Part shown: positions 41,666 to 57,993 of the stretch, piece after piece | Numbering within the stretch: position 1 is the stretch's first letter | Layout of the letters: every line of letters starts with the position of its first letter | From: an uncultured delta proteobacterium | GTDB taxonomy: Bacteria > Desulfobacterota > Desulfobacteria > Desulfobacterales > B30-G6 | Length of the DNA stretch: 64,000 nucleotides | NCBI GenBank assembly: GCA_963823335.1 | Contig: CAWGLD010000001.1 | Location: 1,504,001-1,568,000 of the forward strand | Reading direction: 5' to 3' | Translations under genes and position numbers: made by a program | The notes under the pieces: model-generated | What the model saw: only the letters and a program-made list of their open reading frames with translations | The model's database searches: none | What the model was told of the DNA's origin: nothing

Positions 41666-41687
41666 TCCTATGTATTTGAAAAACAAA

Positions 41688-41729
41688 TAAAGCGCTTCTT
41701 TTTTTTGGGGAAAAGAGAAGCGCTTTTTT
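41688..41729 (+). terminator. Intrinsic terminator ending the qrc region
   Basis: AAAGCGCTTCT...AGAAGCGCTTTTTT. Confidence 0.75.
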
Positions 41730-41932
41730 ATTTTCTATGGATAACAATCCAACCCAACTTTGTGATAATAAAAGATGGATCGAAAACTAAAATAGGTCTT
41801 GGTTTCTCGAACCCATTGTGCCCTGTTCTTCCCGTGCTTGACCCTCAGATCAGTATATGGTTAAAGTGAAGCCATCCGATAGTAAGATCTATACTTTGAA
41901 CCGCAAAAAATCTCCTGGAGAACGGATAATCA

Positions 41933-43186
41933 ATGGATAAAATCATCGTTAAAGGCGGCAAGCGTCTAACGGGTGATGTCAGGGTCAGTGGTGCCAAAAA
42001 TGCGGCATTGCCGATTCTGGTGTCTGCACTCCTGACGGATGGATGGAATACTTTCAGCAATGTTCCGAAACTCATGGATATTGAGAGCACCAAGAAGTTG
42101 TTGTCTACACTTGGTGCGCAGGTAACCGCTGAAAACGGCTCTGTTCGCATCAATTCGAGCGGCCTCAACAGTCATGAAGCACCATACGATCTGGTTCGAA
42201 AAATGCGGGCTTCCATACTGGTTTTGGGACCGTTACTGGCCAGGCTTAAAAAGGCGCGGGTATCGCTGCCGGGCGGCTGTGCCATTGGTGCGCGACCCAT
42301 CAACCTTCATTTGAAGGGATTGGCCAGTCTGGGGGCCAAAATCGACCTCAAGCACGGATACGTGGAGGCGTCTGCATCACGCCTGGTGGGCAGTGATATC
42401 TATCTCGATATTCCCACCGTGACCGGTACGGAAAACCTGATGATGGCGGCTGCTCTGGCGGAAGGTAAAACCACTCTGCGGAATGCGGCCTGTGAGCCGG
42501 AGGTGGTCGCCTTGGCGGACGTTCTGAACCAGATGGGTGCCGATATCCGGAATGCCGGCAGCACCCTGGTGACCATTCATGGTGTACCTGTTCTCAGCCC
42601 GGTATCCACATCGATTATACCGGATCGGGTCGAAGCGGGTACGCTGATGACCGCTGCCGCACTGACCCGTGGCGTGGTCAACATATCAGGATGCGAGCCG
42701 GATCATCTCCAGGCAGTCATCCACAAGCTGAGACTGGCCGGGGCTATTATCGATATTGATGGGTCTATCATACGGGTTTCAGGACCGGAAGAGATCACGA
42801 GTGTCGATCTTAAAACACAGGTGTATCCGGGATTTCCTACGGACATGCAGGCCCAGTTCATGGTTCTGATGTCTGTGGCCGGGGGGTTGAGTATTCTTTC
42901 GGAAACCATATTCGAAAATCGTTTCATGCATGTCAGTGAACTCAAACGGATGGGGGCGGACATTACCATCTCCGGCAATACCGCTCTGATTAAAGGGGTG
43001 CCAGCCCTTTCCGGCGCACCGGTAATGGCATCGGACCTCCGGGCCAGTGCATCCCTGGTTCTGGCCGGGCTCGTGGCCAAAGGGACCACCGAGATCAATC
43101 GGGTGTATCATCTGGATCGGGGATACGAAGCACTCGACCAGAAATTGACCGGTCTGGGAGCGTCGATAAAACGGGTACGTGTTTAG
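41933..43186 (+). CDS. murA: UDP-N-acetylglucosamine 1-carboxyvinyltransferase
   Basis: [42 protein letters not shown] and HLDRGY. Confidence 0.98.
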
Positions 43187-43339
43187 ACATGCGGGCGACA
43201 TTTGCGTTTCGCACGATATTTATCCTTCGGATGTAATTAATGGTCATTTACCCTATCGGGCGTCATTCATTGTTGCTCTTAGCCGAACCTAAAACATAAC
43301 ACCTAAAACCTTAAACGCGATCTGTGTTTCCTCGGACTC

Positions 43340-45847
43340 TTGAACCCTATGTTCCAGCCCATCTATCGCCCCATCATTTGGCTGACGATTGCGATGATAT
43401 TCGGAATCCTTGCGGGTGAAGCCTTTCCAGGTTATGATAAATGGATTTTCATGCTGGCGATGGCAGTCGTTCTGGTCCTGGTGATCGGCCTAAAACGGAA
43501 ATTGTCGGTTTGTTTGCTACCGCTTTTTTTATTTGGCAGTATCGGTTATCTTTCTATCCAACCCTGGGTTGCGCCGCGCTTCCCGGAGCATCACATTCGG
43601 CATTTTGTTGATTCAAAGACCTGTAAAATAACCGGCATTGTCCTGGACGAACCTGTTTCTGACCCTAACAGAACCCGGTTCGTTATGGAGGCAGGCGCCA
43701 TCGTCCGGAACGGGAAGCCTGTCCCAGTCTGCGGACGTGTGCGCGTTACGGTATCCAATGGACCCATTGCCCTGGTAAAGGGAGACAGCATCTCTTTTTT
43801 CGGGCGCATCCGCTCTATTCGGAATTTCAATAACCCCGGTAGTTTTGATTACGAGCGTTACATGGCTTTTCAGCATATCTGGGTCCGCAGCTACGTTGTT
43901 GCAGAAAAACTATCTGTCCGGTCAGGGGCAGAGACATCCAACCGGATGGCTGTTTTCGATGAACGCCGGTCCAGAATTTCTGAAATGATCGATGGCCTTG
44001 GGACTGAGGCTAAGGGAAACGCACGGGAAGTCAAGGCGGTGTCAAGGGCACTATTGATCGGAGACCGTAAAGGGATTGATAGTGCCTTACGCGAAAAATT
44101 CAATCGCGCCGGTGTGGGACATCTGCTTGCCATATCGGGACTTCACATCGGCATCGTGGCCACCGTGACGTTTGCAGTCTTTCGCTGGATTGTAGCATGG
44201 ATTTCACCTGTTTTATGGATAGGCTGGACTAGAAGAACCGCCGCCATCCTGACCTTTGTACCGGTACTGGCCTATGGTTTTCTGGCTGGAATGTCACCTT
44301 CGACCCAGCGGGCGGTTATCATGGTAGGTGTTTTTCTATTGACCCTTCTTTTTGACAGGGAACAGGACCTGATCAACACCATTTGTATTGCCGGTATGCT
44401 GATCCTGGCCATCAATCCGCCTGCGCTTTTTTCCATATCGTTTCAACTCTCTTTCACGGCCGTGATCGTTATCGTGTTGGGCATGTCATTGATACAAGCT
44501 GTTCTGAAGAAACCGAAAGGCATCGCGGTCACCCTGGTCACCAAAGGGGCTGCTTTCATGGCTGTAACTCTTTTTGCCACCGTGGGTACGGCACCACTGG
44601 CTATGGCCTATTTCAACCAGGTTTCACTCATCGGCGTTGTCGTGAATATGGTCGCCATCCCGCTGGTGGGGTTTTTGGCCGTGCCTCTGGGATTGTTGGC
44701 TGTTTTTATCCAGGTGTTCAGCATGGGTGCCGCGTCGGCATGCCTTCAACTGAGCCACTGGGTTCTTGAAAAAGCACTTCTGGTCATCGATTTTTTTTCC
44801 GGAATTCCCGGCTCCGCCCTGGAAACCATTACACCCAGTCTGGTTGAAATCAGTCTTTTTTATCTGATGCTTCTGGGTGTCTTTATCTGGCTTTCCACAA
44901 GGCGTCAGGAAAAACAGTCCAATCAATCCGTTGGCCTGGGACAGAACCTTGCCTATGGGTTGCTTCTCTTGGCTGCTTTTGGATGGGTACTGGATGTTGG
45001 TTACTGGATGCATCTGCGATTCTGGCACAAAGATCTTCGCGTCATGATATTTGACGTGGGCCAGGGAAGTGCCGCGTTGCTGGAGTTGCCCGGAGGTCGC
45101 AACCTCCTGATCGATGGGGGCGGCTTTGCGGACAATGCTGCTTTTGACACCGGTAAAAGTATCATCGCCCCATACCTCCTGCGAAATAAGATCAAAACCA
45201 TCCATACTGTTATTTTGTCACATCCCAACAGTGATCACTTAAATGGCTTGATATATATTGTCGAGCATTTTAATGTAAAGCAGGCCATCACAAACAATGA
45301 GTCCTCCCCGACCATGGGGTATCAATTGTTTGTCGAAACGCTGAAAAAACATGACATTGATACACCGGAGTACCGGGCGTTGGAACCTACTACGACCGTT
45401 GCGGGTACCAAGATAGACATTCTCTATCCCGCTGAAGATTTTTTGGAAAAAGTCTTTAAAGAGAAATGGCGCAACAAAAACAATAACTCCCTGGTGGTCA
45501 AGGTGTCCCATGGTCAGCATGCATTTCTTTTCCCGGGTGATATCATGGCCATGGGCGAAAAAGAACTGGTTGCAGCAGCCGGAAATAATCTGAAGAGTAC
45601 GGTTCTGATAGCACCCCACCACGGGAGCGGTTCTTCGAGTACACCCCTTTTGATCGAACAGGTGAATCCGGAGATTGTGGTGGTATCCTGTGGCTGGGAG
45701 AATCGTTTTAAGTTTCCTGATAGAGCTGTGTTGCAGCGATATGAAACCATGGGGGCCGGGGTCCTGCGAACTGACATTCATGGTGCGGTACAGATCTGGA
45801 CGGATGGACAGGAAATGAGAATGCGAACAGCAATAAGCACGCACTGA
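43340..45847 (+). CDS. comEC: DNA internalization competence protein ComEC/Rec2
   Basis: NPGSFDY, HLLAISGLH, SFQLSF, DVGQG, SHPNSDHLNG and PHHGS. Confidence 0.93.
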   Translation: MNPMFQPIYRPIIWLTIAMIFGILAGEAFPGYDKWIFMLAMAVVLVLVIGLKRKLSVCLLPLFLFGSIGYLSIQPWVAPRFPEHHIRHFVDSKTCKITGIVLDEPVSDPNRTRFVMEAGAIVRNGKPVPVCGRVRVTVSNGPIALVKGDSISFFGRIRSIRNFNNPGSFDYERYMAFQHIWVRSYVVAEKLSVRSGAETSNRMAVFDERRSRISEMIDGLGTEAKGNAREVKAVSRALLIGDRKGIDSALREKFNRAGVGHLLAISGLHIGIVATVTFAVFRWIVAWISPVLWIGWTRRTAAILTFVPVLAYGFLAGMSPSTQRAVIMVGVFLLTLLFDREQDLINTICIAGMLILAINPPALFSISFQLSFTAVIVIVLGMSLIQAVLKKPKGIAVTLVTKGAAFMAVTLFATVGTAPLAMAYFNQVSLIGVVVNMVAIPLVGFLAVPLGLLAVFIQVFSMGAASACLQLSHWVLEKALLVIDFFSGIPGSALETITPSLVEISLFYLMLLGVFIWLSTRRQEKQSNQSVGLGQNLAYGLLLLAAFGWVLDVGYWMHLRFWHKDLRVMIFDVGQGSAALLELPGGRNLLIDGGGFADNAAFDTGKSIIAPYLLRNKIKTIHTVILSHPNSDHLNGLIYIVEHFNVKQAITNNESSPTMGYQLFVETLKKHDIDTPEYRALEPTTTVAGTKIDILYPAEDFLEKVFKEKWRNKNNNSLVVKVSHGQHAFLFPGDIMAMGEKELVAAAGNNLKSTVLIAPHHGSGSSSTPLLIEQVNPEIVVVSCGWENRFKFPDRAVLQRYETMGAGVLRTDIHGAVQIWTDGQEMRMRTAISTH

Positions 45848-45878
45848 ACACCAAACACCAAACACAATATACAAAGAT

Positions 45879-47267
45879 ATGAATCCGATATTTGAACAGA
45901 TAGAGACCTTGTTTCATCCCCGTTCAGTGGCCATTGTGGGGCTGCCCAGGGGTTTGAAAACAGGTAAGCTATTTCTTCTGGCGCTTCAGGACCAGAAATT
46001 TGCCGGGGACATCTACCCGGTGAATCCGAATGTGGACCAGATAGACGGTCTCAAAACCTATCCCAGCGTATCGGCCATTCCAGGACCTGTGGACCTGGCG
46101 ATTGTGCTGGTCCCGAGTCAATACACAATGCCGGTTATCAAGGAATGTGTAGAGAAGGGTGTCAAGGGTGCCATCCTGTTTACTGCAGGATACAGGGAAA
46201 CAGGTACTCAGGAGGGGATCGATCTGGAAAGGGAGATTGTCGCGGTCGCCCGTTCAGGGGGTATGCGGATCATTGGACCGAATGGTATGGGGTTTTACGT
46301 GCCCAGGTCCGGGTTGTCTTTTTTCCCGGAACTTTCCAGGCGGTCGGGAACTGTGGGGATGATATCCCACAGCGGGTCCCTGACCAACATCTTAGGACGC
46401 ATGGCATCGGAAAAGGGCGTATACTTCAGCAAGGTGGTGAGTATCGGCAATGCGTGTGATCTCTCCGTAACGGACTTTCTGGGTTATTTCGCAGCTGATC
46501 CTGAGACGCACGTCATCGGGGGCTATATAGAGGGTATTCCCAATGGCCCGGTCTTTTTGAGTACTCTCAAAAGCGCTTCCCTCAATAAGCCGGTTATTCT
46601 GTGGAAGGTAGGCATGACCCCGGAAGGTTCCCGGGCGGCAAGGTCTCATACCGGCGCTTTGGCCGGATCACGGCAAATCTGGCAGGCTGTGATCCAGCAG
46701 GGGGGAGCGGTGTTGGTTGCCGGGTTCGAGACTTATCTGGATGCCCTGATGACATTCTCCCTCCTGCCCCCGCAGGTCGGGGATCGGCTCGCCATTCTTT
46801 CCGGACCGGGCGGGCTGGCCGTGTCTGCTTGCGAAGCCTGTGGTAACGAAGGACTCAAGCTGGCCGAATTGCTGCCTGAAACTCAGAAAGCTCTGAAGAA
46901 GATGATTCCGCCAACCGGCACGAGTTGTAAAAACCCGGTGGATGTGGGACTCATGGCCTCACTGGATATCGATATATATATTGATGCTGCCCGGGAAATT
47001 GCCCGGGACCCGGGTGTAGATACACTGGTGGTCATCGGAGCAGGCCTGACGCCTGAAACAAACGAAACCTATACCTCGGGGCTTATTCAGGCCCAAAAGG
47101 AATCGGGCAAACCATTTCTACTGGTAAAAATACCCGGTTTTGACAAAAATCTGGCTCAGCGATTCTGCGAGTCGGGCCTCCCCTTTTTCGATTCGGCCGA
47201 GCGCGCTATCCGGACCTATGCGTCCGTGAAACATTACCGGGACTGGCAGCAACGGCAGATGTCGTAA
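45879..47267 (+). CDS. NDP-forming acyl-CoA synthetase alpha subunit (CoA-binding plus ligase domains)
   Basis: P.SVAIVG, YPVNP, IIGPN, SHSG, SHTGALAG (phospho-His) and NPVD; no ATP-grasp domain. Confidence 0.88.
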   Translation: MNPIFEQIETLFHPRSVAIVGLPRGLKTGKLFLLALQDQKFAGDIYPVNPNVDQIDGLKTYPSVSAIPGPVDLAIVLVPSQYTMPVIKECVEKGVKGAILFTAGYRETGTQEGIDLEREIVAVARSGGMRIIGPNGMGFYVPRSGLSFFPELSRRSGTVGMISHSGSLTNILGRMASEKGVYFSKVVSIGNACDLSVTDFLGYFAADPETHVIGGYIEGIPNGPVFLSTLKSASLNKPVILWKVGMTPEGSRAARSHTGALAGSRQIWQAVIQQGGAVLVAGFETYLDALMTFSLLPPQVGDRLAILSGPGGLAVSACEACGNEGLKLAELLPETQKALKKMIPPTGTSCKNPVDVGLMASLDIDIYIDAAREIARDPGVDTLVVIGAGLTPETNETYTSGLIQAQKESGKPFLLVKIPGFDKNLAQRFCESGLPFFDSAERAIRTYASVKHYRDWQQRQMS

Positions 47268-47327
47268 GGGTTTCAGTATCAGGGAGTAAGTAAATAAATA
47301 AAGAACGTCCCCTAAATTGGAGACCTG

Positions 47328-48617
47328 ATGCGTCTAAAAACGAAGCGTGCTGTTTTCGATGAAAAAAGAAAAGCTATTGAATTTTTCCGTGAGCATGTGT
47401 CTTCGGGAAAAGCAAAGTTTTTCAGCGACCTGGGTATGGATATGGTTATGGGTGACCGGGAAGGGGCGTTTCTGGCAGATATGGATGGACAGAAGAAGTT
47501 GTTCAATCTGCACTGCAACGGGGGTGTTTTCAACCTGGGCCATCGAAACCCTGAGCTGATAAAACTTCTCATCGAGAGCCTGGCTACATTTGATATCGGC
47601 AACCACCATCTCATGAGCCGGGTGCGGGCCGGGCTTGCAGAACGGATATCAGCGTCCATGCCCGGCGATTTGAACTACACCGTTTTCGGAGTCGGGGGCG
47701 GTGAGGCCGTCGATCTGGCCATCAAGGTCGCCCGGGCATGGTCCGGTCGAAAAAAAATCATCTCAGCCAGGGGTGGGTACCACGGGCATACCGGTCTTGC
47801 GGTGGCAACCGGGGACAGAAAATACAGTGAACCTTTTGGCGTGTCGTCGGAAGGTTTTGTCCAGGTTCCCTTCGGGGACCTTTCGGCTCTTGAAAACGCA
47901 ATGGATGATGCGGCTGCCGTCATTCTCGAAACGATTCCCGCGACCTTGGGCATTGTCGTTCCATCCCAGGAGTATCTGCCGGCTGTGCGTGACTTGTGCA
48001 GTAAAAAGGGCTGCCTGCTTATCCTGGATGAGATCCAGACCGGACTGGGACGTACCGGTAAGTTATGGGGGTTTGAGAACTTCGGTGTGATCCCGGACAT
48101 GGTTGTTCTGGGCAAAGGTCTTTCAGGGGGCTTGTACCCGATTGCGGCGACGGTGATGCGCACACCCCTCGAACAGGTGTTTCACGCAGACCCTTTCATT
48201 CATATATCGACATTCGGTGGCGCTGAACTGGGGTGTTGTATCGCAAAACGCGTGCTCGAGGTTTCTGCGGATCAGGTATTTCTCGACAGGGTCAACAATC
48301 TTGCCCGGGTCTTTGCCATGCACATCAAGGTGTTGCAGACTAAATACGCGGATTTCCTGGTCGGTTTCCGGCAGATCGGCCTGATGATGGGCCTGGTTTT
48401 CGAGAATGAACTCGCAGGCCCCCTGATGACGAAAACAGCCTATGAAAACGGTCTGCTGATGATTTACGCCAACAACGACACCACTGTCTGCCAGATGCTG
48501 CCACCCCTGATAATGGAAAAAGATCAGGTCCCCTGGGTCATGGAACGGTTGGACAGGTCTATCGCCGCCGCCCGGGAATTGTGCGGTGAAATTAATCCGA
48601 AGCAGAATACAGAATGA
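47328..48617 (+). CDS. Class III PLP-dependent aminotransferase-family enzyme
   Basis: GGEAVD.AIK, GYHGHTG, ILDEIQTGLGRTG, PDMVVLGKGLSGG and STFGG. Confidence 0.92.
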   Translation: MRLKTKRAVFDEKRKAIEFFREHVSSGKAKFFSDLGMDMVMGDREGAFLADMDGQKKLFNLHCNGGVFNLGHRNPELIKLLIESLATFDIGNHHLMSRVRAGLAERISASMPGDLNYTVFGVGGGEAVDLAIKVARAWSGRKKIISARGGYHGHTGLAVATGDRKYSEPFGVSSEGFVQVPFGDLSALENAMDDAAAVILETIPATLGIVVPSQEYLPAVRDLCSKKGCLLILDEIQTGLGRTGKLWGFENFGVIPDMVVLGKGLSGGLYPIAATVMRTPLEQVFHADPFIHISTFGGAELGCCIAKRVLEVSADQVFLDRVNNLARVFAMHIKVLQTKYADFLVGFRQIGLMMGLVFENELAGPLMTKTAYENGLLMIYANNDTTVCQMLPPLIMEKDQVPWVMERLDRSIAAARELCGEINPKQNTE

Positions 48618-49537
48618 AGATCGACACAGACCTTTTATACAGCTTCGAGAAGGGCTTGAATCCCCAGCAGATAGAACAATCCAGGATTCCGGCCTCGATA
48701 CTGGGGTATGGTGAGATATCCACCATCTTCAGGATCCAGGGTGACCATCGGACCGCTTATAAACGGATGCCGCTGTTCTCGAATCGGCAGTCGGCTGAAG
48801 ACTACGTCCTGCTCTACAGGGAGTATAGCCAGCGCTTGATAGCGGCCGGTTTGAACCTCCCGGACCACAATGCCGTTATCGTCAGTCTTCCCCGGCGGCC
48901 TGTGGTGGTGTACATCGCACAGGAGCGCTTGCCTTCGGACCGTTTCGGGCACGCGCTCATCCAAACCGGCGATCATCATCGCTGTATGCAGCTGATCGAA
49001 CAGGTAGCGCTGGAAATATCAAAGGTGTGGCACTACAATGCCTTGTCCGCTCCGGATGTGGCGCTTGCTCTGGACGGTCAGATATCCAACTGGGTATGTA
49101 TGGAAGGGGAGGGTGCTTTTACGATGGTCTACATCGATACCAGCACACCGTTTCTCCGGAGAGAGGGTATTGAACAGCTGGACCCCGAGCCGCTCTTGAA
49201 AAGTGCCCCTTCTTTCTTGAGATGGATCCTGAGATGGCTGTTCCTGGATGACGTGATGAACCGTTATTACGATTCCAGGCAGGTCTTTATCGATATTGCC
49301 GCCAACCTGTTCAAAGAACAGCGGAAAGATCTGATTCAGGGAACCATCGACATTTTCAACCGGCATCTTACAGACGGAGAGACACCCCTGACGGTTTTGG
49401 AAGTAGAAAAATACTACATAGAGGACAAACGGATCTGGACACTGTTTCTTGCTTTCCGGCGAATGGATTGCTGGCTGACAACCAGACTATTGCGCCGGCG
49501 TTATGAATTTATCTTGCCCGGGAAGATAAAGCGTTAG
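48614..49537 (+). CDS. DUF6206-like protein with kinase-like motifs
   Basis: LGYGEISTIF, AYKRMP, LDGQISNW and YIDTS; ATGA overlap with the aminotransferase. Confidence 0.7.
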   Translation: MKIDTDLLYSFEKGLNPQQIEQSRIPASILGYGEISTIFRIQGDHRTAYKRMPLFSNRQSAEDYVLLYREYSQRLIAAGLNLPDHNAVIVSLPRRPVVVYIAQERLPSDRFGHALIQTGDHHRCMQLIEQVALEISKVWHYNALSAPDVALALDGQISNWVCMEGEGAFTMVYIDTSTPFLRREGIEQLDPEPLLKSAPSFLRWILRWLFLDDVMNRYYDSRQVFIDIAANLFKEQRKDLIQGTIDIFNRHLTDGETPLTVLEVEKYYIEDKRIWTLFLAFRRMDCWLTTRLLRRRYEFILPGKIKR

Positions 49538-49698
49538 AGGACTGCCGATATTTGGACGAAAGGATTCCGCACTGAATTTTATAGGGGTTGTCAGAAAAAC
49601 GTTCCGATTGAGGACCTTTTTTCTGCTACAACCCCTTATGCCGCCATCCTATTTTCGGAACATTATTATGACAAGCGCTATAAATATGGGGAATAAAT

Positions 49699-51030
49699 AT
49701 GTGTGACACCTTTATAGCCATGCCGTCCAGCACCGCGGATGGGTCTGTTCTGTTCGGTAAGAACAGCGACCGGGAACCCAATGAGGCCCAGGCGCTGGAA
49801 TACCATCCGGGTTCCGCGCATCCTCCGGATTCCCGGGTGACATGCACGTATATCCAAATTCCTCAGGTGGATGAGACCTATGACATCCTGATCTCGAGAC
49901 CCTTCTGGATGTGGGGAGCCGAGATGGGGGCCAACGAGAAAGGGGTCGTCATTGGAAACGAGGCCGTTTTTACCCGTATGCCCATGGAACACGAGGGGAA
50001 GCTCACGGGTATGGATATCCTGCGGCTGGCACTGGAGCGCTCTGAAACGGCGGACAGGGCGCTGGAGGTTGCGATTCAACTCTTGTCGGATCACGGCCAG
50101 GGTGGTATCTGTGGGTATAGAAACCGCAAAATGGTCTATCATAACAGTTATATAATTGCAGACCCCGATAGGGCCTGGATCCTGGAAACAGCGGGTCCCA
50201 TGTGGGCTGCAGCCAGGATAAAGAAAACCTACAGCATCAGTAACGGTTTGACCCTCGGCGAGTCATTTGAAGAAAGTCATCCGGAGCTCATAACGCTTGC
50301 CAAAAAGCAGGGCTGGCTCAAAAGAGGTGAGACCTTTCATTTTGCACGCTGCTATTCAGACTGGCTTTATACGACCTTCTCAGCCAGCCGCAGGCGAAAA
50401 AGCAGATCGTCCCATCTGTTGAATCAGGCTTTGGGCACCCTGGTGCCGAGGGGCGCCATAGGGATTCTTCGGGATCACGACACATCCATGTATCGACCGG
50501 GAGGACACTTTTTGCAGGACCGTCTCTGCGCGCATGCTGCCAACAGCCTTACCAGAGATTCGGCCCAGTCCACGGGGTCTTTGATGGCTCATCTTACGCC
50601 GGGGCTTCAGACATACTGGGTCACAGGGACGTCTGCCCCCTGCACGGGCATCTTCAAACCCGTATGGTTTAACGACCGAGTTCTGCCGGATATAGGCCCT
50701 GAACCCGGTGATGCCTATGATCCCCGTTGCCTGTGGTGGTTTCATGAAGACCTTCACCGGGCAGTGCTGGAAGACTATGAATACAGGGTGTCGCTTTTTC
50801 GCGAGGAACGGGATGCCCTGGAAGACCGGTTTCTCGAGAGGGCCTCAAACCAGGGCGCTGAAAAACAGTATGACATCTCTCTGGCGGCCTTTGAGGAGGC
50901 CAGGATAAACACCGAGAAATGGATCAAGCGGGTAAAGGCCGCCGGCGTGCGGAACAGGGAAAACTGGGTGTACCGGCGTTACTGGAAAAAGCAGATCCAG
51001 CGTTCGATATCTACTGCGCTGGCGAAGTGA
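49699..51030 (+). CDS. C69 family (secernin-like) Ntn-hydrolase
   Basis: N-terminal MCDT nucleophile, FGKNSDREPNEAQ, WMWGAEMGANE.GV.IGNEA, GMD.LRLALER and YHNSY.IAD. Confidence 0.92.
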   Translation: MCDTFIAMPSSTADGSVLFGKNSDREPNEAQALEYHPGSAHPPDSRVTCTYIQIPQVDETYDILISRPFWMWGAEMGANEKGVVIGNEAVFTRMPMEHEGKLTGMDILRLALERSETADRALEVAIQLLSDHGQGGICGYRNRKMVYHNSYIIADPDRAWILETAGPMWAAARIKKTYSISNGLTLGESFEESHPELITLAKKQGWLKRGETFHFARCYSDWLYTTFSASRRRKSRSSHLLNQALGTLVPRGAIGILRDHDTSMYRPGGHFLQDRLCAHAANSLTRDSAQSTGSLMAHLTPGLQTYWVTGTSAPCTGIFKPVWFNDRVLPDIGPEPGDAYDPRCLWWFHEDLHRAVLEDYEYRVSLFREERDALEDRFLERASNQGAEKQYDISLAAFEEARINTEKWIKRVKAAGVRNRENWVYRRYWKKQIQRSISTALAK

Positions 51031-51103
51031 ACCGAAAAAGGGAGCGCATTCTCCGCAGGTTCTGCCGTGCAGCAGTGCTTCGCATGCTGCGAGGAATCGT
51101 CAA
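51027..51103 (+). repeat. TTGAA...TTCAA mini-element, short form (copy E, degenerate)
   Basis: TGAACCG...GGTTCTGCCGTGCAGCAGTGCTTCGCATGCTGCGAGGAATCGTCAA. Confidence 0.8.
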
Positions 51104-51175
51104 TTCATCATGATTTGTCGGGGCCACGGGATTCTTCAATGCCCCATCTCAATCTATGCTTAAGGAGGAATATCA

Positions 51176-51499
51176 ATGCGAATCGAACTCAACAAAAACA
51201 TTGTGGCATTTACGCCCGAAGCCGATTATGAGAAAACCATGTTGGAAGGACTTTGGCGTATGCTTGTGGATTGTGCTCGTTTTAACCAGAAACTGGTGCC
51301 GATAGGCGAGTATGTTCCTGCAAAAAACAACTCAGCTCAATTTGCAGTTGAAGGTGAAAAGGGTGAAGAAGAATATCCAGTGGTCTATGTGGACAAAGAC
51401 GTCACCTGCTATTGCCAGACATGCAACAAGTACGTTAATCTCAAAGCCGGCGACCGCATTCCACCGTGTTGTGGTAAGTTGATGGAGTTGTTGGACTAG
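51176..51499 (+). CDS. Small protein with a C-terminal desulforedoxin-like Cys motif
   Basis: AAGGAGG RBS; CYCQTCNK...PPCCGKLM. Confidence 0.8.
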   Translation: MRIELNKNIVAFTPEADYEKTMLEGLWRMLVDCARFNQKLVPIGEYVPAKNNSAQFAVEGEKGEEEYPVVYVDKDVTCYCQTCNKYVNLKAGDRIPPCCGKLMELLD

Positions 51500-51519
51500 A
51501 TTAAAGGATCGACAGAACC

Positions 51520-52884
51520 ATGCAGAGCTCTTTTTCGTTCGATGGCATGATTGTTTTTGGTTGGCTGTCATTTATGCTTCTGGCCGGTGTGCTGTTGAGA
51601 TCAAGGATACCTTTTTTGCAGCGGTTTCTTTTCCCCAGCTGTTTAACCGGCGGGATGCTGGGCCTGGTTCTTACCCAGACCGGCGTTGTCCAAATCGACC
51701 CGGGTGTCCTGGAAACCTATGCCTATCATTTTTTTAACATCTCCTTTATTTCCGTGGGGCTGACCGCTGGAACCTCCGGCTCGCCCCAGCCGGCACAAAA
51801 CAGGGAGTACGTCAAGGGTCCCGCCTGGATGGCCCTGATACAGGGATCCTGTTTCGGGTTGCAGGCATCCTTGGGCGGGGTGCTCGTTATTGTATTTGGA
51901 CTTCTGGGTTATGAGCTATTTCCGACCTTCGGTTTTCTCGTACCACTGGGTTTTGAAGAAGGTCCGGGTCAGGCACTCTCTGTCGGTAAAGTCTGGGAAA
52001 GCTTCGGATTCGCTCACGCGGCAACCATCGGTCTGACATTTGCCGCCATGGGTTTCTTTTTTTCATTTTTTGTGGGGGTTCCTCTTGTCAACTGGGGCAT
52101 CCGAAAGGGGTTTTCTGCAGCCGGCCCACGAGTTCTGACCAAAGAGATGCTCACCGGTATTCTTCCCAAAGATGGACCTTCAGAATCTGCCGGTGCGTTG
52201 ACGCTTCACCCGGGAAACATCGACACCCTTGCCTTCCAGGCTGCCCTGGTTGGGCTGGTCTATATCATTTCCTATGGTCTTGTTACATCTGCCGGCATGT
52301 TTCTACCGGGTGATGCCGCTAAGATATTATGGGGTTTTTTCTTTATCATCGGACTGGTGATCGCCATTTTTATCCGCCGGCTTATGACCAGCTGGGGTTG
52401 GGTGCATCTGATCGATCCCGGGATCCAGCGTCGCGTAACAGGGTGGGCAATTGATTTTCTGATTGTCTCCACGGTGGCGGCCATACAACTCACGGTTGTT
52501 TGGCGGTATATTCTACCCATCAGCGTGCTCGGACTTGTTAATGGCTTAATGACAACGCTGCTGGTGGTATACCTGGGCCGGAGGGTATGGGCGTATAATC
52601 TCGAACGAACCGCCGCCGTTTATGGCGCCGTAACCGGAACGGTTTCTTGCGGTCTTTTACTGCTGCGTATCGCCGATCCGGAATTTGAAACACCGGTGGC
52701 CGTTGAAATCGCCATAATGAATGTTTTTTCCATCGTTCCCATCGGCATATGTCTCATGCTGGTCAACGGGCCTGTATGGTGGAACTGGGGCGTTGGCAGG
52801 ACATCGCTGATTTTTCTGGGAGTTATGTGCTTGTGTCTGGCCACGCTCCGGATGCTCAAATACTGGGGAGCGCCCAAATTTTGA
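51520..52884 (+). CDS. GltS/ESS-family sodium:solute symporter
   Basis: LQRFLFPS...GG, PLGFEEGPGQA, G.TFA..GF, YGAVTGT and LLLLRIADPEFETP. Confidence 0.82.
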   Translation: MQSSFSFDGMIVFGWLSFMLLAGVLLRSRIPFLQRFLFPSCLTGGMLGLVLTQTGVVQIDPGVLETYAYHFFNISFISVGLTAGTSGSPQPAQNREYVKGPAWMALIQGSCFGLQASLGGVLVIVFGLLGYELFPTFGFLVPLGFEEGPGQALSVGKVWESFGFAHAATIGLTFAAMGFFFSFFVGVPLVNWGIRKGFSAAGPRVLTKEMLTGILPKDGPSESAGALTLHPGNIDTLAFQAALVGLVYIISYGLVTSAGMFLPGDAAKILWGFFFIIGLVIAIFIRRLMTSWGWVHLIDPGIQRRVTGWAIDFLIVSTVAAIQLTVVWRYILPISVLGLVNGLMTTLLVVYLGRRVWAYNLERTAAVYGAVTGTVSCGLLLLRIADPEFETPVAVEIAIMNVFSIVPIGICLMLVNGPVWWNWGVGRTSLIFLGVMCLCLATLRMLKYWGAPKF

Positions 52885-52994
52885 CAAGGAACCGCCTAAT
52901 AATCAGGTCACTTTAAGCTATCAGCAGCTTAGAGCTAATTGCTTACAGCTATAAATCCCGTGCTTCTGTAGCGCGGGATTTATTTGGAGGACTC

Positions 52995-54323
52995 ATGGGA
53001 CAGAAGTCGCTACCATTAAAAGGTATGACCAAGGAAGCCATCTTTGAAGAATTCAGCACCTTGAAATCCCAGGATGCAGATTGGCATAACGGGCAAATGT
53101 TCGGTCTGATTTATGAAGCGGGCCAGGATGTAGAAGATCTGGTGAAGGCCGCCCAGGCGGAGTTTACGATTGCCAATGGTCTCAATCCCATGGCTTTCCC
53201 AAGTCTTGTGAAGATGGAAAACGAGATCGTTTCCATGGTAATCTCGCTTAGTGGGGGAGATGACGCCGTGGCGGGAAGCGTAACCACCGGAGGGACCGAA
53301 AGCATATTCATGGCCATGAAGGCGGCACGGGATTGGGGTCGTGCAACACGACCGGAGGTCGAGAAACCTGAAATGATTGTCCCGGTTACGGCGCATCCTG
53401 CCTGGAACAAGGCCGCCCATTACCTGGGCCTCAAGCTAGTGACAGTCCCGGTTGGTGCAGACTTTCGCGCCGATGTCGCGGCCATGGAGGGCGCGATTAC
53501 CGCCAATACGATTATCCTTGGGGGTACTGCCGTGACGTATCCCCATGGTGTCGTGGATCCCATCGACAAACTGGGGAAACTTGCTCAGGCACATCATTTG
53601 TGGCTGCATGTGGACGCCTGTCTTGGCGGCTTGATCCTGCCTTTTGTCAAGAAGGCAGGATACGAGATACCCGTGTACGGTTTCGATGTCCCGGGTGTGA
53701 GTTCGGTGTCCGCCGACATCCACAAGTATGCCTACACCCCCAAGGGAATTTCCATCGTCATGTATCGTGACGTGTCCCTGCGCCAGTATCAATTTTTTGT
53801 ATACACGGATTGGCCGGGTGGCGTGTATGCCACACCGGCCCTGAGCGGGGGACGAAGCGGTGGTCTTATTGCGGCTGCCTGGGCTGTTTTTCATTACCTG
53901 GGGGAGTCGGGTTTTGTGCGGCTCGCCAAACAAGCCAAGGAGGCAGCCAACAGGCTTATGGCAGGCATTGAGGCCATACCGGAACTTCATATCCTCGGTG
54001 ATCCCGAGGCTACGGTCTTTGCCATCGCTAGCGATCAGATCAATATTTTTGAACTTGGTGCTCAAATGAACGACCGCGGCTGGCACATCGAGACCCAGCA
54101 CCTTCCAGCGAGCCTTCACATGACAATTTCCCCGGTCCACATCGAAACAGCGGATCGATTTCTCTTTGATTTAAAAACCGCTGTTCCCAACATTCCACCG
54201 GTGGATGCGGACGCATTGTCGGATCAGGCCGCCCTGTATGCCATGATCGGCACCTTGCCGGACCGTAAAATGGCCAAAGAACTGGTGCTGCAGTATTTTA
54301 ATGATCTGTACCGGCTCAAGTAA
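52995..54323 (+). CDS. Sphingosine-1-phosphate-lyase-like group II PLP enzyme
   Basis: TGGTESI, AHPAWNKAAHY, YPHGVVDPI, LHVDACLGG, SADIHKYAYTPKG and WPGGVYATP..SG.RSG, closely paralleling SGPL1/Dpl1 motifs. Confidence 0.85.
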   Translation: MGQKSLPLKGMTKEAIFEEFSTLKSQDADWHNGQMFGLIYEAGQDVEDLVKAAQAEFTIANGLNPMAFPSLVKMENEIVSMVISLSGGDDAVAGSVTTGGTESIFMAMKAARDWGRATRPEVEKPEMIVPVTAHPAWNKAAHYLGLKLVTVPVGADFRADVAAMEGAITANTIILGGTAVTYPHGVVDPIDKLGKLAQAHHLWLHVDACLGGLILPFVKKAGYEIPVYGFDVPGVSSVSADIHKYAYTPKGISIVMYRDVSLRQYQFFVYTDWPGGVYATPALSGGRSGGLIAAAWAVFHYLGESGFVRLAKQAKEAANRLMAGIEAIPELHILGDPEATVFAIASDQINIFELGAQMNDRGWHIETQHLPASLHMTISPVHIETADRFLFDLKTAVPNIPPVDADALSDQAALYAMIGTLPDRKMAKELVLQYFNDLYRLK

Positions 54324-54403
54324 ATGCTTAACACGGGATCTGACACCGGGACAGAAAATCAGGCAACATTCCGGGAGTCGAGATTCTCTTTTTGCCCTGA
54401 GAA

Positions 54404-54925
54404 TTATTTTTTCAATATGACCGGTTCCGGTTTGTAGTCGCCCGAAGTTACCCGGTTCCAAAAAGTTTTTTCGTCCTCCATCCATCGCGAGCCGAAGTTC
54501 TTTTTGAAGACCCCCCCCAAGCGTTGGAACATGCGCTTCAGGCCTGAGCGGTGCTCCATGGTCAGGAGGTCTTCCAGAAAATCGGCGATGTCCACCATTC
54601 TTTCTTTTGGAATATATGCCCGGGCGCCCATTTCAATTGAACGCTTCAGGTCTTGCACGGAAAATGCGTGGGCTGTGAGCATGGCGGTGGGAAAGCCCAG
54701 ATGGACCGATGCATTGAGAAGGTCAAATCCGCGGACACCCATGATATCTAAAATCACGGCATCATACGTCCAGGATCTGAGTAGATGGTAGCCGGCTTCA
54801 TAATCTGTTGCCCGGTCGAAAACAAGGTCCTCATAGTCCTCGAGAAGATCCGCCAGTGTTTCCAGAACATCGGGTTCATCGTCGACGGCCAGTATCCGTT
54901 TACCATTTAAAATGTGTTCTGACAT
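54404..54925 (-). CDS. Response regulator receiver protein with C-terminal extension
   Basis: ILAVDDE, ILDIMG, MLTAH and YIPK. Confidence 0.88.
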   Translation of the reverse strand: MSEHILNGKRILAVDDEPDVLETLADLLEDYEDLVFDRATDYEAGYHLLRSWTYDAVILDIMGVRGFDLLNASVHLGFPTAMLTAHAFSVQDLKRSIEMGARAYIPKERMVDIADFLEDLLTMEHRSGLKRMFQRLGGVFKKNFGSRWMEDEKTFWNRVTSGDYKPEPVILKK

Positions 54926-54947
54926 TTTATGTGCCTCTTCATGCGTG

Positions 54948-55517
54948 TCATATATAGTTGGTTTTCTCCTTCACATCTTTTCTGGGAACTGCCGCCATGG
55001 CGCTTTTGGGTTTGCCGATGCATACCAGAGAGATGGGGGTTTTGTTTTCGGAAATATCGAGTATTTTTCTCATTTGAGGCTTGTCGAAAAAGGTGAACCA
55101 AAGACCCCCCAGTCCCAATGCATGAGCGGCCAGGAGCATATTTTGAATAGCTGCCGCACAGGCCAGCTGATAGCCGGCGCTGCCCTCTTTTTGAAACATG
55201 TCCACACCGGTCTTTTGCGGGTCTCCTATCACAGCGATGATCACCGGCGCCTCCTTTAGAAAGTCGGCCTTATATTTGTTCAGCCACGTCCAGCCGCTTT
55301 CTTCGATGGCCCAGCTCCGGCATCTTTCAGCTTCTGAAAACAATTCATTTTTCTTGTCATCGCTTGTGATGATGATAAATTGCCATGGCTGGGTGTTCAG
55401 GGGCGACGGCGCCCATGCAGCCGCCTCGAGCACTTTTTCGATGGTTTTGCTATCAACGGGTTCGTTTACAAAGTTTCTGCAGCTTCTTCTGTCTTTGATT
55501 GCTTTAAAAAGATCCAT
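54948..55517 (-). CDS. Nitroreductase family protein
   Basis: RRSCRNF, APSPLNTQPWQF and QNMLLAAHALGLG. Confidence 0.92.
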   Translation of the reverse strand: MDLFKAIKDRRSCRNFVNEPVDSKTIEKVLEAAAWAPSPLNTQPWQFIIITSDDKKNELFSEAERCRSWAIEESGWTWLNKYKADFLKEAPVIIAVIGDPQKTGVDMFQKEGSAGYQLACAAAIQNMLLAAHALGLGGLWFTFFDKPQMRKILDISENKTPISLVCIGKPKSAMAAVPRKDVKEKTNYI

Positions 55518-55518
55518 A

Positions 55519-57204
55519 TCATGCTCCTTTGGAACCAAATGTTTTATTGTCTTTTGACATTCGCCGAACCTCATCATCCCTGACCTCCCGCCGAAGAAGC
55601 TTACCCACCTTTGACTTGGGCAGCATATCTCTAAATTCAACGTAGGATGGTACTTTGTAGGGAGCCAGGCGTTCACGGCACCATGCGATCAATTCAGCGC
55701 CGCCCACACCCCTGGCATCTTCTTTGAGCACGACGATGGCCTTGATTCTTTCACCCACTTTGGGGTCCGGAATACCTACGACACAGGCACCGATAACCGT
55801 GGAATGGTCCTGCAGCACAGCTTCGACTTCTGAAGCTGAAACGCGGAAGGCTTTGTGTTTGATGATATCGGCCGATCGTTCCATATATATCAGCTCACCC
55901 GTGGGAAGGGCACTGACAAAATCACCCATACGGCACCATATCTTTCCCTGGATCTCGATATAGGTTTTGCGCGTTTCTTCGGGCTTGTTGTAGTATTCCT
56001 TCAGAGTATAGGGAGAGGTGATCAGAAGTTCTCCGCTCTGGTTTCCGGAAACCGGCTCCAGGGTTTCAGGGTCGACGATCATGCACTGCCTGCTTTTCAG
56101 CGGGAACCCGATGGCCCTCGGGCTCGGTTCGACCCCGATACGGCTGTAAGTCACATGCCCGACTTCGGTGGACCCGTAGACTTGATAAATAGGGATGCCG
56201 CAGTGTTTGCGCCAGCGGTCCTTCACCTCTTCCGGCAGGACATCGCCACCGCAATAGCAATAGGTCAGGGAACTTAAATCGTATCGGTCGAGGCGATCAT
56301 TTTCCAGAATCATCCGGTATAGGGCCGGCACACCGAGGATCCATCGAACCCGGTATCGCTGAATGGATTCCAGAATCGCATCCACCTGAGGGATCGGCAT
56401 CAACAGGACGGTGTTGCCCTTGTTTAATCCGACAGCCATGAACAATCCCAGGGCCATGATATGAAACAGCGGATTGATGGCGATATAGGTGTCCTCGCCC
56501 TCCTTGAGGTGATCGCCGGCGACATCTTCCGTAACGTCGTTCACATAAGATGTCATGCCGATGTGTGTTCCGGGAACACCCTTGGGAAATCCGGTGGTAC
56601 CACCGGTATAGAGGATGTAGGATAAATCCTTGACAGGATCGATGTCTGCGTTCTTCTGAATGGGGGAATGCTTGAGCAGGGATCGAAATTTCTTCACACG
56701 ATCGTCCCGATCGACTTTCCCGGTGGGGATCTTGTCGAATAAAACACCCAGACAACGCTTCCAGACCGGCAGGAGATCCACCATGTTGGTCACAACCACC
56801 TGTTTGAGATCGGTTTGCGACAGCGCTTCTTTAACATAGCAGAAATTGGTGTCCGTGCAGATGATCGAGTCGACGCCGGCATCCTTGATCATGTAGATGA
56901 TCTCATGAGACGTGTAAATCGGCGCAACCGGCACGATAACGGCACCGATTTTCTGGATACCCAAAAATGCGACCACCCATTGAGCGCAATTGGGGATATA
57001 GATCATCACCCGGTCACCTTTACGCACACCCATGTCGGACAAGCCGCCGGCAAACCGCTCAGATAAATTTTTCAGACGGCGATAGGTGAAATGTTCTCCC
57101 AGATAGATCAAGGCGCTTCGGTCCGGGTATTTTTCACTCATCTGATCAAAGCGGGTGAATGTCAGTTCTTTTTCCAGTGTATCAACGGTAGTGCTCATAT
57201 TCAA
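55519..57204 (-). CDS. AMP-dependent acyl-CoA ligase
   Basis: YTGGTTGFPKG, YGSTE, RMGD, EVEAVL and LPKSKVGK. Confidence 0.93.
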   Translation of the reverse strand: MNMSTTVDTLEKELTFTRFDQMSEKYPDRSALIYLGEHFTYRRLKNLSERFAGGLSDMGVRKGDRVMIYIPNCAQWVVAFLGIQKIGAVIVPVAPIYTSHEIIYMIKDAGVDSIICTDTNFCYVKEALSQTDLKQVVVTNMVDLLPVWKRCLGVLFDKIPTGKVDRDDRVKKFRSLLKHSPIQKNADIDPVKDLSYILYTGGTTGFPKGVPGTHIGMTSYVNDVTEDVAGDHLKEGEDTYIAINPLFHIMALGLFMAVGLNKGNTVLLMPIPQVDAILESIQRYRVRWILGVPALYRMILENDRLDRYDLSSLTYCYCGGDVLPEEVKDRWRKHCGIPIYQVYGSTEVGHVTYSRIGVEPSPRAIGFPLKSRQCMIVDPETLEPVSGNQSGELLITSPYTLKEYYNKPEETRKTYIEIQGKIWCRMGDFVSALPTGELIYMERSADIIKHKAFRVSASEVEAVLQDHSTVIGACVVGIPDPKVGERIKAIVVLKEDARGVGGAELIAWCRERLAPYKVPSYVEFRDMLPKSKVGKLLRREVRDDEVRRMSKDNKTFGSKGA

Positions 57205-57246
57205 TCAGACTCCTGAAAAAAAAATATTCTTCACAAAGGATGGGAA

Positions 57247-57993
57247 TCAAACACCGAAATAAGCAGCGCGCACATCCGGATTGTCCATCAATTTTTCGCG
57301 ACTGCCCTCGAGAACGGCGGAACCGTTTTCGAGAATAAACGCATAGTCAATGATGGGCAGAACCGGACGTGCATATTGTTCGGTAACGATGATGGAAATG
57401 TGGCGTTCATCCCGGATTTCCCTGGTGGTGCGCATGAGCATGGCTTGCATCAGGGGGCTGAGCCCCAGCAAGGGCTCGTCCAGGAGCAAAATTTTCGGCT
57501 GGGCCATGAGGGCCCGGCCAATGGCCAGCATCTGCTGCTCGCCCCCGCTTAAAAAACCACCCAGCCTGTTTTTCAGTTTTTTCAGCGCCGGGAAAACAGT
57601 GAAAACATAATCCAATGTCTCTCTGGCCTGGGCAGGGCTGGCAAGGTACCCGCCGATTTTCAGATTTTCAAGAACCGTGCTTTCCTTAAAAATGCGCCGC
57701 CGTTCCGGGCACAACACGATACCCATCCTTGCCCTCTGGCTGGGTTTTATGTCGCTCACTTCCTGGTTTTGATAACGAATACTTCCGGTCAAGGTGATAC
57801 GTTCACCACCGGACATTTCTTCTTTTTTGCGGATATCGAGCATGATGCCGGAAAGGGTATACATGAGGGTCGATTTACCGGCGCTGTTGGCTCCGAATAC
57901 GCCGACAATCTGGTTTTTTTCACAACGGATACTGACATTGTTCAAGGCCAGCATGTTCTCGTAAAAAACCATCAGTCCGCTCGCTTCAAGCAT
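57247..57993 (-). CDS. ABC transporter ATPase (LivF-like)
   Basis: GANSAGKST, LSGGEQQM and LLLDEP. Confidence 0.92.
   Translation of the reverse strand: MLEASGLMVFYENMLALNNVSIRCEKNQIVGVFGANSAGKSTLMYTLSGIMLDIRKKEEMSGGERITLTGSIRYQNQEVSDIKPSQRARMGIVLCPERRRIFKESTVLENLKIGGYLASPAQARETLDYVFTVFPALKKLKNRLGGFLSGGEQQMLAIGRALMAQPKILLLDEPLLGLSPLMQAMLMRTTREIRDERHISIIVTEQYARPVLPIIDYAFILENGSAVLEGSREKLMDNPDVRAAYFGV

Follow-up and report, generated by a model that had tools for sequence, protein, structure and literature searches.

Do seven neighbouring genes whose products can be matched neatly to proposed steps of sphingoid-base breakdown encode one pathway? The question is raised by a window of 64,000 nucleotides from an uncultured delta proteobacterium (assembly GCA_963823335.1, contig CAWGLD010000001.1, positions 1,504,001 to 1,568,000), in which the seven genes lie in a row on the plus strand (45879–54323). 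A sequence-only reading had tentatively interpreted them as a single ceramide and sphingoid-base pathway comprising a ceramidase, a long-chain-base kinase, a sphingosine 1-phosphate (S1P) lyase, a phosphoethanolamine phospho-lyase and, for the acyl chain, the alpha subunit of an ACD-type acyl-CoA synthetase. The co-directional arrangement and the protein families that it named were borne out by the open reading frames (ORFs) and by matches in Pfam, NCBIfam, the PDB and a protein atlas. The single pathway was not. Comparison with related loci gives good support to the conclusion that the seven genes are a composite of independent units and not one conserved operon. Unit A (47328–51030) is a self-contained, portable cassette that moves between genomic contexts and consists of genes for a class III pyridoxal phosphate (PLP) enzyme, a kinase-like DUF6206 protein and a C69-type hydrolase. 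Unit B (51520–54323) is a transporter–lyase pair that is separate from the cassette. The explanation that we favour, to which we give an even chance of being right, is a two-unit composite in which Unit A would provide an amidase, a kinase and a phospho-lyase, and Unit B a transporter and a divergent lyase.

The seven genes belong to separately conserved units

We fetched 32 loci encoding homologues of the lyase and examined 50 loci encoding DUF6206, from which L035, on the contig of locus L003, was excluded. The class III PLP gene lay immediately 5' of the DUF6206 gene in 44 of the 50 loci; four were unjudgeable owing to a contig end and two were without it. The hydrolase gene was present in 25 of these loci and missing from 17, the other eight being cut downstream, and four of nine hydrolase loci were without DUF6206. 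The lyase, transporter and ACD-alpha genes were found in none of the 50 DUF6206 loci within the fetched flanks. The cassette recurred under about a dozen phylum labels (taken from record titles), mostly in uncultured bacteria of sediment or water, and its proteins were 40–70% identical across these labels.

Among the 32 lyase-homologue loci, the cassette was found only in L003 (94% identical), which holds all of the genes. L004 (90%) and L005 (86%) kept the ACD-alpha, transporter and lyase genes and had none of the three cassette genes; a genome search did not find DUF6206 anywhere in the two genomes from which these loci come. The remaining 29 loci had the lyase alone in common with the window. 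In L003, L004 and L005 the transporter gene lay immediately 5' of the lyase gene. The interval between the ACD-alpha and transporter genes (47268–51519) is a variable spot among these close relatives, filled by the cassette in the window and in L003, by an ABC transporter and a nucleotidyltransferase in L004 (885–8463) and by cyclase/FHA-like ORFs in L005 (7149–8480).

A single sphingoid-base pathway would draw support from the neat match between the genes and the proposed steps and from the adjacency of cassette and lyase here and in L003. However, this adjacency was seen in one near relative only, and two other close relatives keep the transporter–lyase pair without the cassette. The sequence-only reading had expected its genes to occur together elsewhere. 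This held for DUF6206 and the lyase at the level of genomes within the phylum, as described below, but failed at the level of neighbourhoods, none of which was shared beyond L003; by the terms of that reading itself, this tells against it. No conserved neighbour named a substrate for the cassette, as no further gene family occurred in more than five of about 55 loci. The recurrent neighbours were lineage-specific housekeeping genes or transporters and included ParAB, an NYN-domain protein, KsgA, Ddl, GlnA, EF-G, a Ser/Thr kinase and an ABC transporter with PhoU/PHO4.

A kinase-like protein is coupled to a non-canonical class III PLP enzyme

The cassette opens with a gene (47328–48617, plus strand) for a class III PLP enzyme of 429 amino acids (Aminotran_3, E = 2e-75). 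Its stop codon shares the four bases ATGA with the start codon of the DUF6206 gene (48614–49537, plus strand; 307 amino acids; Pfam DUF6206, 87.1 bits versus a cut-off of 30.4), an overlap that the sequence-only reading had reported and that is visible in the sequence. The fold, the PLP lysine, the aspartate at the pyridine nitrogen and a DE(I/V)Q motif agree with membership of class III. K263, D234 and Q237, which correspond to K300, D271 and Q274 of YgjG (4uox numbering), were invariant in 39 of 39 family members. The Glu–Arg ion pair of class III transaminases (E235/R413 in OAT, E243/R426 in YgjG) was missing: in the alignment to 4uox, Glu243 of YgjG was replaced by Thr206 and Arg426 by Gln389 in all 39 members, and the site of OAT R180 and YgjG K183 was His154, again in all 39. 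An excerpt of PMC4244111 describes Lys300, Glu243, Gln274 and Arg426 as strictly conserved among YgjG, AcOAT, OAT and GABA-AT, and the Glu–Arg pair as serving, and being needed for, the binding of the 2-oxoglutarate carboxylate. Because this pair is missing throughout the family, the window enzyme is not, on this evidence, a plain putrescine or ornithine transaminase, which agrees with the assignment made by the sequence-only reading. No NCBIfam model exceeded its cut-off for this protein, the best being putrescine aminotransferase (258 versus 612 bits). The ethanolamine-phosphate phospho-lyase ETNPPL (6tor) was a class III relative at 119 bits, about 42nd among the PDB matches. Known phospho-lyases are not the nearest relatives of the window enzyme, a result that bears on its membership and not on its working mode, and class III includes 1,2-elimination lyases according to an excerpt of PMC8154272.

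We found that a G31-x-G33-E34-x-S36 loop, K50, D154...N159 and D175 were invariant in an alignment of 22 DUF6206 sequences. When an AlphaFold 2 (AF2) model of the protein (pLDDT 89.2) was compared with the PDB by Foldseek, only kinase-fold proteins appeared among the matches listed (ranks to 50), namely protein kinases, APH, WaaP, Bud32 and RIO, and at least 500 PDB matches had E ≤ 0.001. The bilobal fold, Gly-rich loop, lysine, catalytic D..N and metal-binding aspartate of protein-kinase-like and APH enzymes can all be recognized, which upholds the earlier description of the protein as kinase-like. Pfam APH touched two of the 22 members, the neighbours of DUF6206 in the protein atlas were kinase-like clusters (every score below 0.9) and a DUF6206 profile retrieved nothing meaningful from PDB sequences. 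We propose that the DUF6206 protein is a small-molecule kinase, a function suggested by its conserved motifs and modelled fold. DUF6206 was absent from the searched literature, which also held nothing relevant on a bacterial ethanolamine-kinase/phospho-lyase or aminopropanol-kinase route.

By analogy with known systems, a kinase and phospho-lyase pair fits the PLP enzyme and DUF6206 best, because translational coupling joins a predicted kinase to a class III enzyme that would not bind a keto acid in the usual manner. Alternatively, the row might consist of unrelated housekeeping genes that lie together by chance. The hydrolase would then be a dipeptidase, the class III enzyme a polyamine or ornithine transaminase, the lyase an amino-acid decarboxylase served by an amino-acid importer, and the ACD-alpha protein a subunit of acetyl-CoA synthetase. 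The best NCBIfam models would agree with this: putrescine aminotransferase scores best with the class III enzyme and the tyrosine decarboxylase MfnA with the lyase, both under their cut-offs. So would the best fold match of the hydrolase, a dipeptidase; the housekeeping genes that flank the cassette elsewhere; and the GltS-like carrier, which suits amino-acid uptake. However, both the Glu–Arg pair and the second Arg/Lys site are missing in every member of the PLP family, the lyase scores threefold higher with S1P lyases than with MfnA, and the PLP gene is coupled to the kinase-like gene in 44 of 46 judgeable loci, a partner that an ordinary transaminase does not need. We therefore regard a chance assembly of this kind as improbable.

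Two observations concern the junction of the PLP and DUF6206 genes. One extra base, 10 nucleotides before the PLP-gene stop, joins DUF6206 to the PLP gene in frame in L003 (6085–6230, compared with 48540–48680 of the window), giving an ORF of 726 amino acids. We did not count this as a fusion, as it results from a single extra base in a metagenome-assembled genome (MAG) and could reflect faulty assembly. Around the DUF6206 match, the open frame extended over 866 amino acids in genome G073 and over 743 in G351, the genome of L003; these, too, may be either fusions or assembly errors.

The cassette may break down a hydroxy-amine

The third gene of the cassette, which is facultative (49699–51030, plus strand), encodes a C69-type amidohydrolase of 443 amino acids belonging to the cysteine N-terminal nucleophile (Cys-Ntn) enzymes (Peptidase_C69, 27.8 bits versus a cut-off of 23). 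M1-C2-D3-T4 and K21-N22-S23-D24-R25 were invariant in 20 hydrolase sequences. The best fold match of its AF2 model (pLDDT 86.9) was the C69 dipeptidase 5iau (E = 1.3e-17, TM 0.71), with bile-salt hydrolases and penicillin V acylases coming next, and a profile search retrieved 5iau at E = 2.8e-4. A phmmer search of PDB sequences yielded nothing meaningful, and the NCBIfam C69 dipeptidase equivalog gave 20.1 bits versus a cut-off of 250. An N-terminal cysteine nucleophile and a predicted Ntn alpha-beta-beta-alpha fold agree with Cys-Ntn/C69 membership. The sequence-only reading had compared this enzyme with acid ceramidase. No likeness to acid ceramidase or NAAA was found by Pfam, NCBIfam or PDB sequence searches, nor among the fold matches listed (ranks to 50, with gaps), and a C69 dipeptidase as nearest fold speaks against the ceramidase step of a sphingoid pathway.

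It is most likely, judging from protein families and from analogous systems, that the cassette acts on a hydroxy-amine through an amidase, then a kinase and then a PLP phospho-lyase. The C69-type Cys-Ntn hydrolase would free from an amide an amine with a neighbouring hydroxyl. The DUF6206 enzyme, with its kinase fold and catalytic motifs, would phosphorylate that hydroxyl of its putative substrate. The class III PLP enzyme, acting as a phospho-lyase, would then eliminate phosphate and ammonia to leave an aldehyde or ketone, with chemistry analogous to what ethanolamine-phosphate phospho-lyase and the hydroxylysine kinase/phospho-lyase pair carry out. The simplest candidate substrate for Unit A would be ethanolamine or phosphoethanolamine, and the reading of the cassette as a route for amino-alcohol breakdown is plausible.

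Unit B pairs a GltS-like carrier with a divergent lyase

The first gene of Unit B (51520–52884, plus strand) encodes a GltS/ESS-like membrane transporter of 454 amino acids, identified through the protein atlas. This protein had no Pfam match at E ≤ 0.01. In a feature search of the atlas, 27 of 30 matches lay in Glt_symporter clusters, with a best score of 0.98. Homologues of the carrier also adjoined lyase homologues in loci L104 and L108. The second gene (52995–54323, plus strand) encodes a PLP enzyme of the S1P-lyase family, 442 amino acids long and with a short N-terminus, in which Pfam and NCBIfam recognize a domain of decarboxylase type. We placed this enzyme by PDB bit scores and signature residues. 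Its PDB matches were 3mad (StSPL; 375.9 bits, E = 2.1e-111), 4q6r (human; 355.1 bits), 3mc6 (yeast Dpl1p; 324.3 bits) and 5k1r (Burkholderia; 306.8 bits), as against 120 bits for MfnA and at most 63 for GAD. By these scores it clearly falls in the S1P-lyase clade and not in the MfnA or GAD decarboxylase clades, and to that extent the sequence-only reading was correct.

We then compared the lyase with the residues listed in Table 3 of PMC6148460 and in PMC10243590 (excerpts of both). The cofactor residues K311, H310, D274, C276, H201, G168 and T169 were kept, and S353, a residue of the cofactor cup that also contacts the phosphate ion, was replaced by Gly. At the substrate-phosphate sites, Y105, N126 and K317 were kept, whereas A/T103 was changed to Leu and H/Q129 to Asn, so that two of the five sites differ. 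Leu103 and Asn129 are seen in none of the five characterised enzymes in Table 3 of PMC6148460. The alignment begins at StSPL residue 70, and about 65 N-terminal residues are missing. There are 39 residues before the Y105 equivalent, compared with 61–130 in homologues with the canonical signature, and no N-terminal segment or membrane anchor preceding the catalytic core was found in the window lyase.

An identity of about 50% to StSPL (counted from the alignment) and the retention of Y105, N126 and K317 would favour a sphingoid S1P lyase, as a review among these sources counts StSPL among the characterised S1P lyases. However, the Leu, Asn and Gly substitutions at positions 103, 129 and 353 and the missing N-terminal residues argue against this assignment, as does the position of a glutamate-symporter-like carrier, ill-suited to a lipid, beside the gene. 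The canonical signature is instead found in a paralogue, described next, and the relatives of the window lyase lie near transporters for polar solutes.

When 27 lyase homologues from the fetched loci were aligned, they fell into three signature groups. Group i has the canonical A/T-Y-N-H/Q...S signature, with the long N-terminus noted above, and an FGGY kinase gene adjoined the lyase gene in six of six loci from six genomes. Group ii, which includes the window enzyme, has the signature L-Y/F-N-N/S...T/A/G and a short N-terminus; its neighbours are genes for TauE-like, GPH or major facilitator superfamily (MFS) carriers and for short-chain dehydrogenases/reductases (SDR), zinc-dependent alcohol dehydrogenases (Zn-ADH) and thiamine pyrophosphate (TPP) enzymes. 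In group iii, residue 129 is Asp and the C-terminal Tyr is replaced by Asn, and two of its members adjoin homologues of the GltS-like carrier. The second lyase paralogue of the genome from which the window comes (G000 C1:1381995–1383332, locus L095) belongs to group i, with the signature T-Y-N-Q...S. It lies between genes for an FGGY (xylulokinase-like) kinase and a threonine-dehydrogenase-like Zn-ADH, the three occurring in the order kinase, lyase and dehydrogenase (G000 C1:1380118–1384497; L095:8119–12497). A TauE/SafE-family gene lay directly after the lyase homologue in L013, L014, L020, L106 and L121 and one gene further on in L104. These loci include Chloroflexota-labelled records as well as genomes of the phylum sample, and unclassified TPP enzymes are often encoded nearby.

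The TauE neighbours hint that some members of the lyase family might take part in organosulfonate chemistry. The window lyase could likewise act on an amino-sulfonate (cysteate-, cysteinolate- or capnine-like), with a sulfonate in place of the phosphate ester, that is imported by the GltS-like carrier, with no kinase involved and the cassette unrelated. Cysteate resembles glutamate and aspartate, which are substrates of GltS-type carriers, and the differences that define group ii sit exactly at the substrate-phosphate positions. The recurrence near lyase homologues of SDR and Zn-ADH genes, and of TPP enzymes partly like sulfoacetaldehyde acetyltransferase, points the same way as the TauE/SafE genes themselves. 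However, the window locus is without a TauE gene, TauE-family carriers are not specific for sulfite, and the TPP enzymes exceed no NCBIfam cut-off, reaching 225–279 bits where that of the Xsc subfamily is 620, and score higher with acetolactate synthases. The group ii lyases, moreover, include no characterised member. We judge an amino-sulfonate substrate for the window enzyme to be improbable. The gene partners across the family point to small polar substrates over long-chain bases, and the most likely role of Unit B, to judge by its residues and neighbours, is the uptake and cleavage of an amino compound that is small and anionic rather than of a long-chain base. If the retro-aldol cleavage of a phosphate ester has been kept, the lyase would produce phosphoethanolamine, and it is possible that Unit B would in this way feed Unit A.

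In the phylum sample, DUF6206 and the lyase co-occur in genomes without serine palmitoyltransferase

A sphingoid substrate would be favoured by sphingolipid synthesis in the source organism. We found a serine palmitoyltransferase (Spt) encoded on contig 2 of the genome (NF047599, 623 bits versus a cut-off of 500). NF047599 also exceeded its cut-off in an E. coli control genome, so that the model alone is not fully specific; gene context supports the Spt call in this genome, and the organism probably makes sphingolipids. The predicted synthesis cluster (G000 C2:110630–116810; L102:4631–10811) comprises Spt, an acyl carrier protein (ACP), an epimerase-like reductase, a fatty acyl-AMP ligase (785 versus 600 bits) and an MsbA-like exporter. 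It is adjoined by NeuB-like and KdsC-like genes, and some 12 kb separate it from a DAGK_cat lipid-kinase-like gene (C2:125443–126429).

We next examined a phylum sample of 301 genomes, with the genome of the window excluded from the tallies. DUF6206 was present in 14 genomes and Spt, at a score over its cut-off, in 10; a lyase homologue (E ≤ 1e-60) occurred in 31 genomes, an orthologue of the FGGY kinase in 25 and EutB in 22. Spt was found in none of the 14 DUF6206 genomes and in none of the 31 lyase genomes of this sample, in disagreement with the proposal that the genes form a set for sphingoid breakdown. Given these absences, the composite nature of the row, the C69-like hydrolase and the altered phosphate sites of the lyase, we consider a single seven-gene ceramide pathway to be very improbable, the Spt cluster of this genome and the co-occurrence described next notwithstanding; the sphingoid reading as a whole is unlikely.

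Lyase homologues were enriched in DUF6206 genomes of the sample (10 of 14 versus 21 of 286 others), as was the FGGY kinase (8 of 14 versus 17 of 286). The lyase and FGGY occurred together in 17 genomes, corresponding to 17 of the 31 with a lyase and 17 of the 25 with FGGY. Tallied by hand from family labels, 12 of the 13 families with DUF6206 also held a lyase homologue. EutB was present in 8 of 31 lyase genomes versus 14 of 269 others. We also considered EutB as a replacement partner of DUF6206 and discarded the idea, as the two showed no overall relation (EutB in 1 of 14 DUF6206 genomes versus 21 of 286 others). Across many phyla, a lyase homologue was present in 24 of 50 cassette genomes, including 15 of 18 with Desulfobacterota-type labels; in every case looked at, it lay on another contig or far from the cassette. 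A link through phosphoethanolamine would explain both the co-distribution of DUF6206 with the lyase and a partial either-or pattern with EutB, and we regard it as a lead.

Evidence against the two-unit explanation and what the explanation would mean

Several observations weigh against the chemistry that we assign to the cassette and against its connection with the lyase. Putrescine, acetylornithine and PigE transaminases score 218–258 bits with the class III enzyme, versus 119 for ethanolamine-phosphate phospho-lyase, and racemase, aminomutase and decarboxylase chemistry remain as other class III reactions, free of a keto acid, that may apply instead. The hydrolase is absent from 17 of 42 judgeable loci and hence is not obligatory, and the substrate of every step is putative. 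The co-occurrence is confounded by shared ancestry: the genomes are not independent, and Fisher values overstate the association. Five of the eight genomes with both EutB and a lyase belong to one family (f51), in which DUF6206 is present in one of six lyase genomes, and in another family (f19) DUF6206 occurs in three genomes and the lyase in two different ones. The closest orthologues of the window lyase in the sample (in G282, G136, G255 and G167; 56–59% identical) come from genomes without DUF6206. Among the 32 cassette genomes with labels other than Desulfobacterota, a lyase homologue was found in only nine.

We can extend the two-unit explanation to a broader scheme, which we put forward tentatively and hold to be doubtful. 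The cassette would serve as a hitherto undescribed, cobalamin-independent route by which amino alcohols of ethanolamine type, once released from amides, become aldehyde, ammonia and phosphate. Diversified lyases would use small phosphorylated 2-amino-1,3-diols that FGGY-type or other kinases provide, and phosphoethanolamine would be shared between the two. Together they would make up a bacterial metabolism of amino-alcohol phosphates that has so far escaped notice. If the kinase and phospho-lyase reading of the cassette is true, DUF6206 gains a function, and the class III enzyme represents a second line of phospho-lyases within class III, one that evolved independently and is recognizable by the signature E-T-x-P-A-T-x-G and by Gln in place of Arg. 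It would also mean that anaerobes can use ethanolamine-like compounds without B12.

The lyase results bear on annotation as well. Bacterial proteins annotated as S1P lyases span at least three signature groups with distinct partners, among them FGGY kinases and TauE-like, sugar-type and GltS-like carriers. Because the signature groups and their partners differ and Spt was found in none of the 31 lyase genomes of the phylum sample, it is probably wrong to call all bacterial homologues S1P lyases. Neither the triad of DUF6206, class III and C69 genes nor the signature groups of bacterial lyases were found described in the searched literature.

Other genes of the row and its surroundings

The first gene of the row (45879–47267, plus strand) encodes an ACD-alpha-like acyl-CoA synthetase subunit of 462 amino acids (CoA_binding_2/Succ_CoA_lig/Ligase_CoA_2) that matched TIGR02717 at 376.9 bits, under the cut-off of 567. 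Ten more paralogues were matched in this genome (E ≤ 1e-10), so that the gene is one of at least 11, and we found no ATP-grasp beta-subunit gene adjacent to this one in a scan of the window (a genome-wide search for a beta subunit was not made). L003 and L005 have the gene next to comEC, and L004 has it too, whatever comes next, with or without the cassette. The acyl-CoA step that it would supply to a sphingoid pathway fits poorly with the number of paralogues and with this position, and its link to the other six genes is putative. Between the two units lies an ORF for a Cys-rich protein of 107 amino acids (51176–51499, plus strand), an orphan with no Pfam or NCBIfam match. In searches of the genome and the fetched loci, its sole match was a stretch of 25 residues in L003 (E = 0.011). 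Because this is its only relative, its status as a gene is weak, and we regard it as a doubtful gene.

The 5' neighbours of the row, by Pfam and NCBIfam matches, are murA and comEC. On its 3' side, genes for a response regulator, a nitroreductase and a FadD-like ligase lie on the opposite strand. The longest ORFs of the nitroreductase (54948–55676, minus strand) and the FadD-like ligase (55519–57204, minus strand) overlap by 158 bases; because the Nitroreductase domain begins at residue 60, translation of the nitroreductase probably begins further downstream than its longest ORF suggests. A scan for promoters and terminators (45500–54700) found sites to be no commoner than in shuffled sequence and none to be usefully intergenic, and an Rfam scan (41000–58000) gave zero matches. 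In another part of the genome (G000 C1:1086342–1093481, locus L103), we observed genes for Kbl (glycine C-acetyltransferase) and for Tdh, each scoring above its cut-off, which are flanked by a trimethylamine-methyltransferase-like gene and a gene for a corrinoid protein of glycine-betaine type, followed by a fused HisH–HisF.

Comparison with known systems

The logic of a kinase working with a class III lyase is already known. Hydroxylysine kinase with its phospho-lyase is a precedent for such a pair, as is the mycobacterial aminopropanol kinase with its phospho-lyase, and Veiga-da-Cunha reportedly described in 2012 both the kinase–lyase pairing in animals and a linkage of the corresponding genes in bacteria. 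The cassette resembles ETNPPL-type systems in that a small-molecule kinase of APH/protein-kinase-like fold stands beside a class III PLP enzyme of a non-transaminase kind, both of these functions being predicted here. It differs from them in that its PLP enzyme is nearer to the transaminases YgjG, ArgD and PigE, its kinase belongs to DUF6206 and not to Pfam APH, and a C69 Ntn hydrolase is attached. YgjG/PatA, the best-scoring solved relative of the PLP enzyme (218 bits), has the same fold, and its K300, D271 and Q274 are kept, whereas its Glu243, Arg426 and Lys183 become Thr, Gln and His across the family of the window enzyme.

The hydrolase shares the N-terminal cysteine nucleophile and the Ntn fold with the C69 dipeptidase 5iau from Lactobacillus farciminis, and bile-salt hydrolase and penicillin V acylase are likewise Cys-Ntn amidases. 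However, it is only 14% identical to 5iau, and its gene is linked to those of a kinase-like protein and a PLP enzyme, a tie that to our knowledge has no counterpart among C69 dipeptidases. The lyase of Unit B falls in one clade with the S1P lyases 3mad, 4q6r, 3mc6 and 5k1r (307–376 bits) and has in common with them the PLP lysine, the cofactor cup except for S353, and Y105, N126 and K317. It departs from these enzymes at three positions (A103 to L, H129 to N and S353 to G) and in the absence of about 65 N-terminal residues. Its gene also keeps different company: its partner is a GltS-like carrier, and relatives in its signature group lie near polar transporters, not near lipid genes.

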